Below, in pieces: positions 14,696-33,331 of a stretch of DNA of 44,161 nt. The notes under the pieces are model-generated. The model searched no databases and was not told the origin of the DNA. It worked only from the letters and a program-made list of their open reading frames with translations. Each line of letters begins with the position of its first letter. The first letter of the stretch is position 1. This DNA comes from a virus (lineage: Duplodnaviria; Caudoviricetes). A program made the translations under genes and the position numbers. The stretch lies in IMG/VR virus record IMGVR_UViG_3300037783_000006, positions 1 to 44,161 of that record; one strand, given 5' to 3'.

Positions 14696-14729
14696 TGCGC
14701 AAATATTTTCGTTACACTTAGCGATAGTT
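14696..14729 (-). repeat. 34-bp array-terminal (attI-like) motif, copy 1
   Basis: Exact reverse complement of 33298-33331: AACTATCGCTAAGTGTAACGAAAATATTTGCGCA. Confidence 0.95.
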
Positions 14730-14910: not shown

Positions 14911-15070
14911 AAAAACCGTTTTATAACAAAGTCTATAAGCAATTGCCTATCAGCGTTTGTTGGTTAATTGAAAGTATTTACAAGGCAACTGCTCATAGCC
15001 TCAACCGTTGTATGCCATTAAAACGGTACGCTCGTACCTCGCCATACAACACAGTATAAACAAAATACAC

Positions 15071-15328
15071 TCACTCGCTCAGTGCTATAATCAAAGCCTG
15101 TCTAATATTTGAGTGCCATTGCTTTGCTTCAACAAAAAATGAAGTTGATACATCTTCGGCTTCATCGCCCATTACTACGCTTTGCATACCATCAAAAGCC
15201 ACCGCCCATCTTCCATCATCATCATTCAATAAATTAGGGCAATAGCCTATTTCACATAGTTCTTGAAGAGATTGCTCTACCGTCAACTCTTCATTTTTTG
15301 TTTTCGCTAAAATTTCTTCGTGTGTCAT
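15071..15328 (-). CDS. Cassette gene inside a site loop, hypothetical (start revised to ATG 15328)
   Basis: Same leader as the 31239 gene (AGTATAAACAAAGTAAA..CGAAC..GAT ATG). Confidence 0.7.
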   Translation of the reverse strand: MTHEEILAKTKNEELTVEQSLQELCEIGYCPNLLNDDDGRWAVAFDGMQSVVMGDEAEDVSTSFFVEAKQWHSNIRQALIIALSE

Positions 15329-15371
15329 ATCGTTCGTTTTACTTTGTTTATACTCCTTCGTTGGCAAACAT

Positions 15372-15629
15372 TCATGCCAACACTAACTCACCATCCAAGT
15401 ATTTTAAACAATGTCTAACTAATGGAGCAATTTGACACTCAACATTTAAGTCATGTCCAGTTTTTATGTTCGGCCACCCTTCCTTTTGCCGCTCCTTAAA
15501 GTATTCATCTATTTCTTGAAGTTTACCTTCAAAAAATTTCCTGTCATTTTCTTCACACAGTTGCTTAATAGTCGCTGCGTAGTTCGGATTCATTTGCCCT
15601 CGTTCGTTAAATTTTTTTTCTAAAGCCAT
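15372..15629 (-). CDS. Cassette body gene, hypothetical (start revised to ATG 15629)
   Basis: Lies wholly between GTTGGCAAAC and GTTTGCCAAC inverted repeats. Confidence 0.7.
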   Translation of the reverse strand: MALEKKFNERGQMNPNYAATIKQLCEENDRKFFEGKLQEIDEYFKERQKEGWPNIKTGHDLNVECQIAPLVRHCLKYLDGELVLA

Positions 15630-15740
15630 CACTATAACGTTTGCCAACAATAAATAAAATGAATAGCGCAGGTTGGCGTTCTGCTTCTATCCAATGTTTG
15701 TTCGTGCGCTACTGCATTTTATTAAAGCCGTTGGAGAACA

Positions 15741-16049
15741 TTATCTCTCCACTATTCTGTAATCATCCCAAATAGCAGATGCTATCAGTTTCAATTGCTC
15801 AAAGTCAACATCTTCAAATTGCATATTTTCTTGAAATCCAACAGCTTGTTGTTTCACGACTTCTTGAAATCCCTTTCTTGATAACGATTCTCCAACATCA
15901 GCTAAATCAACAGATTTAACTTGTTGTTCGTACTCATCAATCGCTATTCTCAGTTCCTCCATCAGTTGATAAATAGGTGTGTTTGGATATTCTCGCTGAA
16001 ATTTCTCAGCAAATCTCACTGCAATTTCATGTGATGTTAGTGTTTTCAT
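15741..16049 (-). CDS. Cassette gene crossing the GTT core (..QQVKSVDLADV*GES..)
   Basis: GTT at 15896-15894 is the in-frame Val52 codon. Confidence 0.75.
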   Translation of the reverse strand: MKTLTSHEIAVRFAEKFQREYPNTPIYQLMEELRIAIDEYEQQVKSVDLADVGESLSRKGFQEVVKQQAVGFQENMQFEDVDFEQLKLIASAIWDDYRIVER

Positions 16050-16094
16050 CTCGTAGTTATTTACCCGTTAAATCCGATTGTTTAGCTGTGTCCG

Positions 16095-16316
16095 TTATAA
16101 AGAATGCCTGTAATCTTTATATTTTTCTAATACTTCCCATAGTTCATAAACCTTTTCAGAACTTACTACCATACCTTCGTCATTTTTGCCAGTGTTGTGC
16201 CAGTGTTGTATGCAAGCCGCTTTATCAAATAATTCAATAAAAGCACTCTCTATAACAACAGGTATAGCACATTGCTTGTCTGCTTTTTTTCTAAATAATC
16301 TCTTAATCCAATTCAT
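16095..16316 (-). CDS. Cassette gene crossing the GTT core (..KQCAIPVV*IES..)
   Basis: GTT at 16256-16254 is the in-frame Val21 codon; stop overlaps TAAC. Confidence 0.75.
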   Translation of the reverse strand: MNWIKRLFRKKADKQCAIPVVIESAFIELFDKAACIQHWHNTGKNDEGMVVSSEKVYELWEVLEKYKDYRHSL

Positions 16317-16374
16317 ATTATTTTAATTTTAGTTAGTGGTGGCAACGTGCCATACCTACAACGTTGCATCAAAT

Positions 16375-27632: not shown

Positions 27633-27909
27633 TAAACGGATTTGAATATGAGTAGTGCCGAGCGTAGGGGTGTCACCCTGCGGAGATGTAGTGAAGTAAA
27701 ACATCTGCGAAAGCATGTGACTGGAACATCTTTTGAGGCATTACTTATATCGTATTTGTATATGAAACGTGGCTGATAAGAACACGGAACTTGTCGAAGC
27801 GTAGTAAACTAAATTAAATGCCGCGCATGGTTAAATAAGCCGTACAACAGCCATGTTTTATATCGGTTACTGCTAAACAACGTAATTTTTAACGACTAAA
27901 TACAGAAAA

Positions 27910-28290
27910 ATGGAATTTACAGGACGATTGATTACAGGAGATTTTGAAGAAAACACAATGACATTTGAAATAGAAGGTGAAATGACACTACAAGCTGGCA
28001 GATACAGGATAGTGCAAATTGAAGCAGGAAACCCAGTTAAAAATAATGTTGATTTAGCTGATGTTGGTGGTAGTCAGGCTACGGGTTTGAAAGACAAGAT
28101 TAAGGATAAGATTGAGGTGGCAAAACATGATATTAAATTGTGTATGAGAGATTTTGACAACTTAGACGAACCTACTTCTGGGTATCCTGTTGGCGATGTT
28201 GGCATAAACATTTCAAAGAGCGAGGTATATCATAGGGGTAGATTACTTGGTCTGGAAGAGGCATTACGGTTTGCAATCGAATGTGAGTAG
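27910..28290 (+). CDS. Cassette gene crossing the GTT core (..VKNNVDLADV*GGS..)
   Basis: GTT 28063-28065 is in-frame Val52. Confidence 0.75.
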   Translation: MEFTGRLITGDFEENTMTFEIEGEMTLQAGRYRIVQIEAGNPVKNNVDLADVGGSQATGLKDKIKDKIEVAKHDIKLCMRDFDNLDEPTSGYPVGDVGINISKSEVYHRGRLLGLEEALRFAIECE

Positions 28291-28355
28291 CCTTATTACC
28301 ACCAACGGCTCTGGGTATGGAGTCGGGTTTTTACGGATTTGAAAACGAAAATATT

Positions 28356-28610
28356 ATGAAAACATATACAGAAGAACAAGTAATTGCAATACTAGACCAC
28401 ATTGAAAGAAAAGGGTTTAACGATGATTGCTTAACAATAAATGATGAACTTGATCATCTTAAAAGGATAGGCGTAGTAAAAAACTGCTCTATACCTGATG
28501 TTGTAAACCGAAGGGAACTGTTACTTGATTTTGCTGACTATTCAGAAAGCGATAAAACTTCTCAAACAACAGATGAGTGTGTAGATAACTATTTAGATTC
28601 AATCAAGTAA
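28356..28610 (+). CDS. Cassette gene crossing the GTT core (..VKNCSIPDV*VNR..); start revised from 28317
   Basis: A-rich leader before ATG 28356; GTT 28500-28502 in frame. Confidence 0.7.
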   Translation: MKTYTEEQVIAILDHIERKGFNDDCLTINDELDHLKRIGVVKNCSIPDVVNRRELLLDFADYSESDKTSQTTDECVDNYLDSIK

Positions 28611-28728
28611 TTGTTTACAACGGTTTTAATAAAATGCAGTAGCGCAAATGCTACACTTGAATAGAAGCAGAAAGCACCCATGCGCTATTCATTTTATTTA
28701 TTGTTGTGGTGCGTTAATTGTTAGAAAT

Positions 28729-28920
28729 ATGCTTTGGAAAAGTAAGTCAAATAAAGTAGCTGTCAAAGTGATTGATATGACTGGTAGTGATGGTAGTGGT
28801 TTAATGATTCGGCTGTTACCATGTGTTGATTTATGGTTTAACGAGGGTGTTGTAATTGGAATAAGTTGGCTTTCTTGGGGTTTTGAATTTTGGTTCACAG
28901 ACGTGAGAGACCTTGTTTAA
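28729..28920 (+). CDS. Cassette body gene, small Trp-rich protein (start revised from 28648)
   Basis: ATG 28729 lies inside body 28703-28931; stop lies in the right inverted repeat. Confidence 0.6.
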   Translation: MLWKSKSNKVAVKVIDMTGSDGSGLMIRLLPCVDLWFNEGVVIGISWLSWGFEFWFTDVRDLV

Positions 28921-28957
28921 TGCACCACAACGGACATGAATAAACACAGTAGCGATT

Positions 28958-29293
28958 ATGAAAGAAGAAATTGAAAGAATACTCAGAAGCCGATTTACAC
29001 GGGGCGACATCCAAACAGCCACAAACGAGCTATTGGATTTATTTAATGTTAGCCTTTCGTTGACAGATTCAAAGGAAGAATACGAGCCTTATTTTGGTTG
29101 GTGTGATGTTGATGGATGCGAAAATGAAGGGGCAAATGGTGGCGGATGCTGGCGAGAAACTGGATATTGGACAGTATGTAGTAAGCATTCTTCAAAATAT
29201 AGAGCGGGTGAGCCGCAGCCACCAATGAAGCAAAAGGCAATAGACAGGGAGAAAAGGCGAGGTGCTGACGGTGTGTTAGTCAATGAAGGCTAA
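28958..29293 (+). CDS. Cassette gene crossing the GTT core (..ELLDLFNV*SLS..), Cys/His zinc-binding-like C-terminus
   Basis: GTT 29048-29050 in frame; CDVDGC..CSKH; stop overlaps TAAC. Confidence 0.75.
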   Translation: MKEEIERILRSRFTRGDIQTATNELLDLFNVSLSLTDSKEEYEPYFGWCDVDGCENEGANGGGCWRETGYWTVCSKHSSKYRAGEPQPPMKQKAIDREKRRGADGVLVNEG

Positions 29294-29478
29294 CGGTTTG
29301 GCTATGCACCGTATGAAGCATAGCGTAATATGGGGTATAGCGTTTAGTATATGATTTCGGTGGCGATTGATTGCAGGACTTTTCGCATACTGACTAACTA
29401 ACAAGACTGCACAGTGGTTGAAATCAAGCTCTGTAACGCCACTGAATTATATACATTGTTATAGGGCGTTTTTTGATT

Positions 29479-29688
29479 ATGATTGAGGCAAAACCAAATA
29501 CAAGATTAAGAAGTGAGATATTAAGCGCATTATTTCATAAAGGATATGCAGGCCCAAATTATAACCTTGATGATGTTTCGGCTTATGTTACAAAGCACGA
29601 TAGTAGTTTGAGTTTATCATTTTGGGATATGAGTTGTACTATAAATAAAAAAGACAAAGGTTATACGGATATTTTAAATGCCCTATAA
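29479..29688 (+). CDS. Cassette body gene, hypothetical
   Basis: Within body 29458-29689; stop overlaps TAAC. Confidence 0.65.
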   Translation: MIEAKPNTRLRSEILSALFHKGYAGPNYNLDDVSAYVTKHDSSLSLSFWDMSCTINKKDKGYTDILNAL

Positions 29689-29917
29689 CGGTTTGGCTAT
29701 GATTAAGCGAAGCGACCCGATAGGGTTAATTATAGCCGTTGTTAGCTGACTGTATGAGCGATTAATACCCACTAACCTACATTTGAAACACTACCGTAGT
29801 ATTTATTTTTTTTGTGCGGTAGCAAAATAATTTTGGAAAAATTAAAATTTTTTACCTTAAAATTAGGATTGTATTATATTTATCCGCATATTTGGGTATA
29901 AATTAATAATTACTGAT

Positions 29918-30238
29918 ATGGAAACTATTACATTATACCACGCCACAAACACACCGATAGAAGAAATAGGAATTGAAAAACAAACTATGTTTTTTACAGG
30001 TGATTATGATTTGGCTAAAAATTGGGGTGATGAACACTATGAAGATTATGATATTTTAGAAGTTGAAATACCTATTGAAGATATTTACGAATATGTGCCT
30101 GAGAGACCTGCATTTGCTATTACTGATTTTGAGCAATTAGAAGTTAAACCTGAGCTTATTACTGGTAAGTGTGTTCATTTTGAAGATTGTAGCGATGGTT
30201 ATATAGTTAAGAATATTAATGATTATGAATTAAGATAA
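29918..30238 (+). CDS. Hypothetical protein, possible ADP-ribosyltransferase-like fold
   Basis: LYHAT...FFT.D...A..WG pattern resembles H-type ART folds; inference only. Confidence 0.4.
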   Translation: METITLYHATNTPIEEIGIEKQTMFFTGDYDLAKNWGDEHYEDYDILEVEIPIEDIYEYVPERPAFAITDFEQLEVKPELITGKCVHFEDCSDGYIVKNINDYELR

Positions 30239-30954
30239 TGGGATTAAAAAACAAATATGTAGTTCACTCGATTGATAATTTTGTTGCAATTGAGTGGATT
30301 ACAAAAAAACATTATGCTAAACGTACACCTATAATGAAATATACGTTTGGTTTATTTGATTCTGATAAAAATATGCACGGGGTTTGTGTTTTTTCTCCTG
30401 CTCCATCTCGATTCTGGAACAATGGAGGTAAATTGTTTAACGAAAAACATAATATAGATGTTTATGAATTAAGCAGGTTGATAATGAATGATGGACACGA
30501 AAAAAATCTAACATCATTTTTTGTAAGTAGATGTTTGAAATTGATTCCAAAACCAAATGTTGTGGTAAGTTATGCCGATAAAAACCAACACCATAGCGGA
30601 TATATTTACCAAGCGACTAATTTTATTTATACTGGTGAAGCTGAACCAAAAAACAAAAGCTTTGATTTTGTAATATTTGGAAAAAAATACCACGGTAGAA
30701 ATATGAATATTGAATTTACAAGAAAACTACTCGGAAATCAATATAACGAAAACATACATTGGAAGGAAAATATAATAGCTGTTGGAGGTGAAATAATACC
30801 ACAATTACCAAAACACCGATATGTTTTTATAAATGCTAAAAACAAACAACAATTAATATCAGATATGATTTATGATTCTGTTGAATATCCTAAACAGAAA
30901 AATAAACGATATGATGCAAGTTTTGAACCAATACAACAAAAAACATTATTCTAA
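30238..30954 (+). CDS. mom: Mom-family adenine-modification enzyme (GNAT-like)
   Basis: KKHY, FGLF..GVCVF, YELSRL, SYAD..QHHSGYIYQATNFIYTG and KHRY motifs. Confidence 0.85.
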   Translation: MGLKNKYVVHSIDNFVAIEWITKKHYAKRTPIMKYTFGLFDSDKNMHGVCVFSPAPSRFWNNGGKLFNEKHNIDVYELSRLIMNDGHEKNLTSFFVSRCLKLIPKPNVVVSYADKNQHHSGYIYQATNFIYTGEAEPKNKSFDFVIFGKKYHGRNMNIEFTRKLLGNQYNENIHWKENIIAVGGEIIPQLPKHRYVFINAKNKQQLISDMIYDSVEYPKQKNKRYDASFEPIQQKTLF

Positions 30955-31145
30955 TGATTGACTGGCTAATAAAAAACAAGAAATTTATAAAAATAAGGGC
31001 AATAGAACAAGAATTGGGAATGCCTGATAGCACATTAACTAAACACGTTAATGGAAGTCAAAAAATGGCTGAGAAGTGGGAGAGACCTCTAAATAATTTT
31101 CTTAATGGTTTTGTTAAAAACCAAGGAGGGGGAGAAAAAAAATAA
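30954..31145 (+). CDS. Small HTH DNA-binding protein
   Basis: IRAIEQELGMPDSTLTKHVNG helix-turn-helix. Confidence 0.7.
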   Translation: MIDWLIKNKKFIKIRAIEQELGMPDSTLTKHVNGSQKMAEKWERPLNNFLNGFVKNQGGGEKK

Positions 31146-31238
31146 ATACGGGCTTATAGCACTGAACTTGATTAGTTGCACGGACTCAGCCCATATTGCA
31201 GCTAACGGTAAAGTATAAACAAAGTAAAGCGAACGGAT

Positions 31239-31442
31239 ATGGATGAAATATACGAACTATACGAACACTGCACAACCGAGAACACGATAATGTGTAACAA
31301 GTGTAGAACCATTGGAAGGGAAATGGATTGTGACCCTTATGATGCTGCAACCACTTGGAGTAAAAAAGGGTGGAGAATTACAAGGCATCAAACAATATAC
31401 TGCCCTAAATGTGCAGAAGGTAAATTGAAACCGAAAAAGTAG
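31239..31442 (+). CDS. Cassette gene inside a site loop; zinc-ribbon-like
   Basis: CNKC...GW......YCPKC. Confidence 0.75.
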   Translation: MDEIYELYEHCTTENTIMCNKCRTIGREMDCDPYDAATTWSKKGWRITRHQTIYCPKCAEGKLKPKK

Positions 31443-31556
31443 TGAGCGTATTTTGTTTATACATTGTTGTAAAATCGTTTTAATGTTTTACAACGGTTTG
31501 GCTATGTGTAGTGCCGACCTTGATAAGTTACTACACTAACTTAAAAGACTAAAACA

Positions 31557-31772
31557 ATGAGTAAAGAACAAAACGAACAACAAGAAAATAAGGCATTACA
31601 TATAGCTGGTGTTAGTGGTAGTTATTCTCCTACACTAACCGAAGTGCAAAAAATGTATGACTATTTAAAGATGTATTTTCACAGAAGCCAGATGAATGGA
31701 TTGGTGGACATAGATACACATGAACGTGGTGAAATTAAGAAGATGCTAAGGCTTCCAGATAATTACCGCTAA
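31557..31772 (+). CDS. Cassette gene crossing the GTT core (..NKALHIAGV*SGS..)
   Basis: GTT 31611-31613 in frame; stop overlaps TAAC. Confidence 0.75.
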   Translation: MSKEQNEQQENKALHIAGVSGSYSPTLTEVQKMYDYLKMYFHRSQMNGLVDIDTHERGEIKKMLRLPDNYR

Positions 31773-31826
31773 CGGTACGGCTAAAACACGGATTTTAACG
31801 GGTAGATACCCACAAACAGAAAGACA

Positions 31827-32156
31827 ATGGAAGAAGAAATTGAACGCAGAATAAATTGGATTAACGCAAGAGTTGATGTAAGCCCATCAATTAAAGATTA
31901 CATAGCTTTTCAGATGCTTGATTTTGCCAAATATTACCACGAACAACAAGTTAAAAACTGTGATTTAGCTGATGTTGGTGGTAACGAAGTGGCGTTGCCT
32001 GATTGCAGTTGCTTGAAATGTAAACCAAATGAATTTCCAAACCTAAGATTTAATGTTTGCCCGAAATGCGGCAACAAAAGATGTCCGCACGCATCCGACC
32101 ATAATTATGAGTGTACAAATTCAAATGATGTTGGGCAAACTGGAAGCGTTTATTAA
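31827..32156 (+). CDS. Cassette gene crossing the GTT core (..QQVKNCDLADV*GGN..), Cys-rich C-terminal domain
   Basis: GTT 31974-31976 in frame; CSCLKC..CPKCGNKRCPHA.DH..ECT.SN. Confidence 0.78.
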   Translation: MEEEIERRINWINARVDVSPSIKDYIAFQMLDFAKYYHEQQVKNCDLADVGGNEVALPDCSCLKCKPNEFPNLRFNVCPKCGNKRCPHASDHNYECTNSNDVGQTGSVY

Positions 32157-32321
32157 GCAATGACCACCAGCGGCTACGGCTATGAAATCGTAGCGGATTA
32201 GAAGCACAGACCTATCGAATAGAAATGATTTTAATTAATAACCATAGTACCCGAATAAGCACGAACACCGCTATGTTTTATAGCCATTGTTGTGCGTATG
32301 TGGCGGTAAATTGAAACGAAA

Positions 32322-32522
32322 ATGAGTTTATTATACAAGACAAAGGAAGAGCAAACAACAACTTGCGAAATAAAGCAGGAGGATGGTAAAATAGTTTTAG
32401 ACTTCTATTCTGATTCTGGAAAGTTTGGAACTGATGAAATGCTTGATGGCTATAAATTAACTCCTGAAAGATTGTTGCAGATTTTACAGGATAGGGATGA
32501 TTATTCCGAAGATGAATTGTAG
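32322..32522 (+). CDS. Cassette body gene, hypothetical
   Basis: Within body 32289-32536. Confidence 0.7.
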   Translation: MSLLYKTKEEQTTTCEIKQEDGKIVLDFYSDSGKFGTDEMLDGYKLTPERLLQILQDRDDYSEDEL

Positions 32523-32618
32523 CCATTACGCACAACGGTTTGGGTATGGTGTCGGCTGACGAAGGAAGCTGCACTATGCGCAGTGTTAGCATTAGTACGG
32601 ATTTAAAACATAAATACA

Positions 32619-32807
32619 ATGAAAAAAGAGATAGTAATTACCATAGCTTTAGAGCCTACCAGATGGCAAAGGTTTTTAGATAAAACTGGATTAAAGCGAT
32701 TCACTTATGATGAAATGATGATAGCTGTAGAAGACGGACAGCATTTCTACGATAGACCGAATAGCAAGATTAGAATGATTAGAGTTCAAGAAAACCGATT
32801 GAGTTAG
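32619..32807 (+). CDS. Cassette body gene, hypothetical
   Basis: Within body 32585-32820. Confidence 0.7.
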   Translation: MKKEIVITIALEPTRWQRFLDKTGLKRFTYDEMMIAVEDGQHFYDRPNSKIRMIRVQENRLS

Positions 32808-32918
32808 TATTAATGCTAACGGTTTGGCTAAGAAACGTGGCCAGTAAGAACGTTTAAAATTAACCCACGGCAGAGGCAAAGCCATGTTTACTTAGCCCTT
32901 GTTGTAAACTGAAAAATT

Positions 32919-33062
32919 ATGAGAGATTTATTTGATGCTATTTCGTTGATAATGGGAATAGTTACAATGATTGCAATGGTGGTAGCTGTTTTTCTTGGAG
33001 ACAAAGAATCAGCTACACTATTTGGCGTGATTGCTTTGATATTGAGACCAAGCGATAAGTAA
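32919..33062 (+). CDS. Cassette body gene, 47-aa two-TM membrane protein (not in the ORF track)
   Basis: MRDLFDAISLIMGIVTMIAMVVAVFLGDKESATLFGVIALILRPSDK fills body 32901-33078. Confidence 0.7.
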   Translation: MRDLFDAISLIMGIVTMIAMVVAVFLGDKESATLFGVIALILRPSDK

Positions 33063-33297
33063 TTTTATTGTTTACAACGGTAAAGTATATAAGTAGTGCG
33101 GTTCATACAGGCTTCGGACACGGTTGCAAACGTATAAATAAGAGCCGATTAGATTGTTTGGAACATAACGACCGTATTACTTATATACATTGTTGTAAAA
33201 TCGTAGGGGTATGACCACAAATAAACAAAGGCGGATTGGTTTTCCAACTTCGGCAAATGTCGGAGGTCTGAGTTCGATTCTCGCCCCTATGTTTTAC

Positions 33298-33331
33298 AAC
33301 TATCGCTAAGTGTAACGAAAATATTTGCGCA
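33298..33331 (+). repeat. 34-bp array-terminal (attI-like) motif, copy 2
   Basis: Exact inverted copy of 14696-14729. Confidence 0.95.

Follow-up and report, generated by a model that had tools for sequence, protein, structure and literature searches.

The question raised by the stretch of DNA considered here is why genes should begin inside recombination sites and be read out through them. The window (the whole of the 44,161 nucleotides (nt) of IMG/VR record IMGVR_UViG_3300037783_000006, from a virus of the Caudoviricetes) carries arrays of hairpin sites resembling the attC sites of integrons, and seven of its open reading frames (ORFs) start in the loop of such a site and run through its right arm and a terminal GTT, read as valine (Val), into the body that follows. 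The original prediction took this GTT for the recombination core, at which N-termini encoded in loops and C-termini encoded in bodies would be recombined into chimeric proteins. Our analyses support the chimerism and place the routine crossover elsewhere, in the AAC arm of the site. The reading we favour, with a probability of roughly 0.68, is that the arrays lack an integrase and carry genes antisense to their sites, that whole genes are moved routinely at AAC, and that the swaps at the Val GTT likely result from an occasional cut of the second strand.

Followed along the genes, a site consists of an AAC, a spacer of 6-7 nt, an arm, a loop, the complementary arm, a 4-nt spacer and a GTT. Each body between sites starts with GTT-N7 and finishes with the complement (N7'-AAC), so that, as expected of attC sites, an inverse core ending in AAC and a core beginning with GTT are complementary across one cassette body. 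At positions 4-9 this complementarity amounts to 0.60-0.84 in 165 viral bodies and 0.86-0.98 in 44 chromosomal ones; it reaches roughly as far as position 14, interrupted at position 11 by a conserved mismatch (complementarity of 0.00 in the chromosomal and 0.13 in the viral bodies) that is perhaps a further contact of the integrase. The 19 sites of the window form two arrays, 14 on the plus strand (27862-33194) and five on the minus strand (16365-14925); with at least two attC-type sites each and no neighbouring integrase, both correspond to clusters of attC sites lacking integrases (CALINs). The labels R', R'' and L box, as well as the canonical spacer lengths, follow general usage and PMC5027507.

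The seven ORFs proved to lie exactly where they had been reported, each with a loop ATG in the frame of the GTT, 18-51 codons ahead of it, and with 36-81 codons in the body (lengths in amino acids, aa; a slash marks the junction):

27910..28290, plus strand: ORF 27910, 51-aa loop half and 75-aa body half, linker DLAD/V
28356..28610, plus strand: ORF 28356, 48-aa loop half and 36-aa body half, linker SIPD/V
28958..29293, plus strand: ORF 28958, 30-aa loop half and 81-aa body half, linker DLFN/V; its stop is the TAA of the next core
31557..31772, plus strand: ORF 31557, 18-aa loop half and 53-aa body half, linker HIAG/V
31827..32156, plus strand: ORF 31827, 49-aa loop half and 60-aa Cys-rich body half, linker DLAD/V
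16095..16316, minus strand: ORF 16316, 20-aa loop half and 53-aa body half, linker AIPV/V
15741..16049, minus strand: ORF 16049, 51-aa loop half and 51-aa body half, linker DLAD/V

Val-frame crossing is found at 7 of the 19 sites, which is equally 7 of the 12 sites of at least 105 nt, and six of the seven ORFs have A at position -3. ORF 28648 had been set apart as a possible exception whose true start is probably 28729, and the sequence is in keeping with this: it crosses in the +2 frame and has C at -3, and the start at 28729 has A there. A possible eighth Val-frame ORF (32546-32683), which starts in the arm of a 54-nt site and overlaps gene 32619 in another frame, is probably spurious.

A wider survey of 513 viral and 17 metagenome loci yielded 388 unique sites, of which 57 matching the search patterns for bodies or right arms were removed. 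A loop-starting ORF crosses 134 of the remaining 331 viral sites (104 in the Val frame, 23 in the +1 or leucine (Leu) frame, one in both and six in +2), as against 15 of 331 on the opposite strand, taken as a control, and 13 of 143 chromosomal sites, where the frame bias is absent. Given this excess, together with the A-rich starts, the crossing of hairpins is real and specific to phages. Among Val-frame genes, A occupies position -3 in 72 of 104 and position -12 in 87 of 104, the two positions named as start determinants for Flavobacterium johnsoniae in passages of PMC6847099; viral loops contain 53% A, compared with 32% in chromosomal sites.

The expectation that crossing ORFs would not use the three frames equally in a larger sample was borne out (104:23:6), but we rejected the share of the Val frame as proof of selection, since the background of TGTT[AG] motifs is skewed in a similar way and the TAG of the arm partly forces the bias. 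Motifs of this kind inside ORFs anywhere in the window fall into frames 0:+1:+2 as 62:11:7 (n=306 motifs, the seven sites included), a frame-0 share of about 78% that is about equal to the share at the sites. The arm is open in frames 0, +1 and +2 at 90, 31 and 79, respectively, of 136 chromosomal sites, with TAG mostly closing +1, and the left-arm search patterns themselves favour TAG arms; sites with frames 0 and +1 both open split 42:16. The frame preference is thus only partly informative. The Leu frame, with the linker YTL/L, is a common second reading frame, and its members include, as judged by eye, long DNA methyltransferase-like genes extending for some 213-217 codons past the junction (L373 and L560).

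The Val GTT had been taken for the recombination core, yet it is the inverse core R'' in reverse complement, and strand of the genes, folding bias, position of attI, junctions in isolates and linkage together show that it is not the routine crossover. Of 24 viral bodies, 22 have their longest ORF between sites on the hairpin-reading strand; of 38 chromosomal bodies, 34 have it on the opposite one (a further 13 viral and 10 chromosomal bodies hold no ORF). Viewed in the direction of the chromosomal genes, the sites resemble ordinary attC and the phage GTT is the complement of R''; the arrangement that characterizes a gene cassette, a gene running toward its own attC and ending before it, is accordingly found in those 34 chromosomal bodies and reversed in the 22 phage ones. 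On the gene-sense strand of 375 viral sites there are 671 G.T wobbles versus 79 A.C, and this strand is the more stable in 342 of them (mean -2.4 kcal/mol); in 116 chromosomal sites the corresponding wobbles number 221 versus 19. Passages of PMC5027507 describe a comparable folding advantage of attC bottom strands (-2.12 kcal/mol) and cleavage of the recombining bottom strand in its AAC. The sites studied here likewise have one better-folding strand with a G.T skew, on which the AAC junctions appear to fall. Extra bases on the two arms, counted from a crude arm alignment, number 106 versus 84 in viral and 44 versus 15 in chromosomal sites.

In all seven examined phage or metagenome loci with an integrase, a body-end AAC and a simple half-site precede the integrase gene, and in three chromosomal loci this half-site comes after the integrase and corresponds to the first body end. 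Because its core pairs with the neighbouring body end and it adjoins the integrase, the half-site is, as far as sequence can tell, the attI of the system, joined at AAC in phages; one of the isolates described below has a new cassette at this place. The window itself has only a 34-mer that position and layout mark as attI-like. In chromosomes attI stands just after the stop codon of the integrase (L219, L220, L227 and others), which is co-directional with the cassettes, and in phages it stands before the start.

Cassette movement can be followed in otherwise identical isolates of two Polaribacter phages, Freya (L673-L686) and Danklef (L687-L691), of which we compared six Freya genomes with Freya_10 and three Danklef genomes with Danklef_5. 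Relative to Freya_10, the genomes Freya_1, 2, 5, 8 and 9 are without blocks of 4942, 4100, 3198, 902 and 307 nt, respectively, and Freya_6 has a new cassette of about 470 nt at attI; a methylase cassette of 781 nt present in Danklef_5 is missing from Danklef_2, 3 and 4. All seven distinct events have their junctions at AAC and none at GTT, and the 307-nt unit is a complete Val-crossing gene. Danklef_1 displayed no cassette event in the stretch compared. Variation in genome length among the isolates is largely a matter of cassette gain or loss at AAC; the word "integron" is absent from the isolation paper in the passages available (PMC8776804). Across loci, the neighbours joined at AAC differ in 23 of 25 and 44 of 46 pairs, whereas those joined at GTT differ in 7 of 15 (seven the same, one intermediate) and 24 of 48 (nine the same, 15 intermediate), the break being at T/GTT. 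The cassette is a site plus the following body, moved as one gene and routinely gained and lost at AAC.

Sequence comparisons also show a true exchange of front and back halves between phages, frequent in their history, with the breakpoint at T/GTT. When the halves were searched separately, matches to either one ended at the Val, beyond which the partners differed, as had been predicted of chimeras. The 60-aa body of ORF 31827 has 107 matching proteins; of the 36 best, 29 contain the Val junction, with 18 N-terminal clusters under a strict clustering that splits some short related leaders apart. Conversely, its N-half retrieved, besides itself, only the protein P0108, which is 92% identical up to the Val and has an unrelated body thereafter. 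At the DNA level, 12 loci with a 31827-type body are 86-100% identical over the body and, in most pairs, 25-60% identical in the 12 nt before the GTT; identity falls again past the final AAC in all independent pairs, and one independent pair (L228/L286) shares the loop. The N-halves of 16049, 16316, 31557 and 28958 have relatives on other bodies, that of 16049 sitting on a different one in L584, whereas searches with those of 27910 and 28356 gave weak matches to the linker only. Freya_10 and Danklef_5 differ at two GTT junctions. The recombination of loop N-termini with body C-termini proposed in the original prediction therefore stands as an exchange of halves, but as a second and rarer one at the inverse core R'', through which the chimeras would arise, and not as the routine movement. 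Regarded as proteins that are made or useful, the fusions are candidate chimeras.

The favoured reading would work as follows. The window holds two integrase-less arrays of an integron-like system of Bacteroidota, in which the phage genes lie antisense to the attC sites, each starting in the loop of its own site and reading through R''. The gene-sense strand would fold into the recombining hairpin and be cut at AA/C, presumably by a XerD-like integrase of the host acting in trans on the phage arrays. Should two sites occasionally fold on the second strand, an excision between their R'' cores would join the loop of the upstream site to a body further along. Loops rich in A may serve as a Bacteroidota translation start, with the fixed frames keeping the fusion open; as the purine-rich folding strand is in phages also the mRNA strand, its A-rich loops may have become starts. 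Off-strand attC recombination is documented, and rises when extrahelical bases are missing, in passages of PMC5027507 and PMC9892861.

Several observations weigh against this reading, and its main weakness is rarity: off-strand recombination of wild-type attC is 1000-10,000-fold rarer according to passages of PMC5027507, whereas roughly every second pair shows a break at GTT. The same site with a different body is also what cassette creation is expected to produce in any sedentary integron. At the two GTT junctions between Freya and Danklef (15 and 24 codons), long in-frame fusions are not evident. Bodies share families of starts (39 of the VVG.SEQL type, 16 of the VSGS type) with unrelated cargo, and P0079 joins such a shared start to half of the Cys-rich body, so that further breakpoints must exist inside bodies; the 5' end of the window's own 31827 body is unlike the rest of its family. 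The linkage pairs are not phylogenetically independent, gain and loss are indistinguishable in the isolate events, and three of the isolate junctions (Freya_1, 2 and 8) fall on the record origin, with four lying within the record. Finally, the attI-like 34-mer of the window has zero matches in viral contigs or fetched loci, and an excision joint is absent from contigs of this phage, contigs being prone to drop rare variants; the joints that were listed are cross-matches between the two arrays or other phages.

The alternative that survives best, and which we rate somewhat short of even odds, is compatible with any mechanism: the loop halves would be interchangeable leaders supplying nothing but a start codon, and the fusions tolerated by-products instead of selected new proteins. 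Indeed, the N-halves accepted by one 60-aa body range in length from about 14 to over 50 aa, among 160 Val-frame N-halves 41 fall short of 20 aa, and the frame bias is partly forced by the arm TAG. However, 79 of the 160 reach at least 40 aa, the long ones occupying enlarged sites of 180-280 nt that are rare in chromosomes, and some N-halves recur in conserved form on different bodies; in ORF 16049, the match to phrog_36156 is confined to the N-half. Rather improbable is an origin of the GTT junctions in cassette creation, or in annealing-type phage recombination at the short shared arm, with site and body assembled independently. It would suit the near-identical sites that precede unrelated bodies in 11 of 12 pairs, the Erf-like annealing protein encoded by the phage, the breakpoints inside bodies and the very low off-strand rates given in passages of PMC5027507. 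It sits poorly with copies of one body that keep complementary ends while the site changes, which is unlike independent capture, and with a break confined to the four shared bases TGTT. Four bases are short for annealing. We consider it very unlikely that the arm before the GTT (TA-N4/5-GTT) is an attI-like, double-stranded target behind whose loop incoming cassettes insert and to which they fuse: attI half-sites do share the layout of the right arm, and inverted host cassettes would also be accounted for, but the scheme predicts opposed sites within arrays, and among adjacent pairs these number only 2 of 172 in viral and 0 of 67 in chromosomal loci. Least credible is a routine crossover at the Val GTT, making a new chimera with each excision or insertion, which the sharp T/GTT breakpoints with their many partner combinations and the fixed frame in 104 of 134 crossings might suggest and which the AAC junctions of all seven isolate events contradict, as do the attI at the AAC end, a folding bias toward the strand cut at AAC and a linkage that is preserved much more frequently over GTT than over AAC. 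To return to the favoured reading, its boldest extension, that Bacteroidota phages turned a non-IntI integron into a natural shuffler of protein domains, the inversion of the genes placing the start and an N-terminal module within attC, one core reordering whole genes and the other recombining N- and C-modules in frame into a selected combinatorial library of small phage proteins, seems doubtful to us.

The recombinase linked to such arrays is XerD-like (PF13495 plus PF00589) and scores below all NCBIfam cut-offs. Against TIGR02249 the array-linked integrases reach 178-213 bits (cut-off 265), matching only positions 2-183 and 239-315; the IntI-specific insertion, at positions ~184-238, is absent. 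The gene stands at the head of the arrays in six chromosomal loci and at their end in several phage loci; in the window, no integrase or tyrosine recombinase was found by PHROGs and Pfam scans of the complete genome or by tblastn with an array-linked integrase. The Danklef integrase is annotated as a 132-nt stub, yet its methylase cassette varies, consistent with supply in trans.

The window represents a complete circular phage genome of 44,034 base pairs plus a 127-nt end repeat; a protein scan, with 60 ORFs against PHROGs and 26 against Pfam, points to a terminase, a primase/helicase, the Erf-like protein, an amidase, a methyltransferase and a Mom-like gene. Because matches to its hairpin sites lie mostly in Bacteroidota genomes (judged from 80 record titles out of 127 loci), the host probably belongs to this phylum; one 16-mer of the site system matches about 1400 genome stretches. 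BLAST of the array against annotated phages gave four short matches only, and Rfam yielded no family match, with one sub-threshold chance match outside the arrays. A scan for sigma-70 promoters and terminators was uninformative (21 and 4 matches versus 23.8 and 3.6 expected). Misassembly of the arrays is unlikely, since exact contig pieces from two further sequencing runs span several array junctions with zero differing letters.

A first, loose hairpin scan was dropped as too unspecific in favour of a scored finder run on the window and six shuffled strands, with five degenerate sites added by eye. Thirteen sites score at least 12, all inside the two clusters, and one more scores 10.6 (shuffle maximum 11.2); the finder requires a TA-type box and overlooks some site families, so that site counts are lower bounds. 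The sites and associated features are as follows:

27862..28065, plus strand: site S0, left core degenerate (ATC for AAC), loop with the start of ORF 27910
28304..28502, plus strand: site S1, 199 nt
28619..28705, plus strand: site S2, short (87 nt), of the same family as 15732-15646; downstream gene start probably 28729
28929..29050, plus strand: site S3, 122 nt
29292..29460, plus strand: fused degenerate site pair, the first without right core, the second without left core
29687..29743, plus strand: site S5, short (57 nt)
29741..31206, plus strand: long body with three genes, including the Mom-like DNA modification gene 30238-30954
31204..31468, plus strand: site S6, whole gene (31239-31442) in the loop, followed by an empty 29-nt body
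31492..31613, plus strand: site S7, 122 nt
31771..31976, plus strand: site S8, 206 nt
32169..32291, plus strand: site S9, left core AGC, no Val-frame crossing
32534-32587, 32818-32903 and 33076-33194, plus strand: sites S10, S11 and S12, with bodies between them
33298..33331, plus strand: 34-nt terminal half-site, attI-like on the opposite strand; an identical copy closes the second array
16254..16365, minus strand: first site of the minus array, 112 nt
15894..16096, minus strand: site of 203 nt
14925..15732, minus strand: three further sites, 15732-15646, 15362-15048 (whole gene in the loop) and 15009-14925
14696..14729, minus strand: second copy of the 34-nt attI-like terminal half-site

In the pair at 29292-29460, a body and both inner cores have been lost between two sites; together with the degenerate cores at 27862 and 32169 it suggests that the array is ageing. 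The left arm of S0 recurs in L049 with an intact AAC. The stretches 31204-31494 (plus) and 15362-15007 (minus) belong to one arm family and hold different whole loop genes beside empty bodies of 29 or 44 nt, so the loop cargo itself seems replaceable. The 34-mer of both array ends assembles as a separate unit at twice the depth; in relatives with an integrase, the plus array is followed by a 95-aa ORF without a Pfam or PHROG match.

Comparison with known systems begins with integrons themselves, with which this one shares the complementary core and inverse core of each body, sites that form hairpins and have a folding strand rich in G.T, an attI-like site beside a tyrosine recombinase, gain of cassettes at attI and their loss between cores. 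It differs in a recombinase that lacks the IntI insertion and stays below the TIGR02249 cut-off, in the chromosomal recombinase being upstream and co-directional, with attI after its stop, and in phage genes that are antisense and translated through the site; extrahelical bases, as far as the crude arm alignment shows, appear inconsistent. The system thus works like an integron but falls outside the integrons on its integrase and, in phages, on gene polarity. Passages of PMC4889954 hold that recombinases without the insertion (intI_Cterm) are not integron integrases, and complete integrons are described as nearly absent from Bacteroidetes in passages of 10.1101/2022.02.28.482270 and PMC8618304. 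Integron work treats attC as non-coding, whereas in the phage form the sites are coding and exchange takes place at both cores. The full-text literature searched, which leaves most subscription journals outside, yielded no account of natural genes being translated through attC, nor of such a XerD-like recombinase system.

Closer in setting are the phage CALINs, including that of Polaribacter phage P12002L (Qi et al. 2023, PMC9892861), likewise integrase-less attC clusters in lytic phages with DNA-modification cargo. In the supplement matches, the arms of P12002L_attC1 belong to the family seen in the window sites, and passages of the paper single it out as the sole site of six that IntI1 did not recombine. 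Its passages, section 3.4 and supplement matches contain no ORFs through sites, gene inversion or XerD-like integrase. A widespread Bacteroidota system moves cassettes in cultured phages and is directly testable with Freya and its Polaribacter host; the isolate junctions and junction counts are new evidence on the position of the crossover. The system offers a handle on how sites and genes become joined, a matter of interest for the creation of cassettes.

The translated arms are a natural counterpart of the synthetic attC peptide linkers of Nivina et al. (2020, PMC7439510), in whose passages the attC arm likewise doubles as coding sequence and is proposed for module shuffling, and they may be a source of many short "hypothetical" phage proteins. 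Those linkers were engineered around the normal crossover, whereas the present ones are natural and antisense, with R'' as the translated core. The step needed for Val junctions resembles the top-strand attC recombination of Nivina et al. (2016, PMC5027507), a cleavage at the R'' AAC on the disfavoured strand. In passages of that paper it is very rare and inverted cassettes were never seen in natural arrays; in the phages described here whole arrays are gene-inverted and R'' junctions are common.

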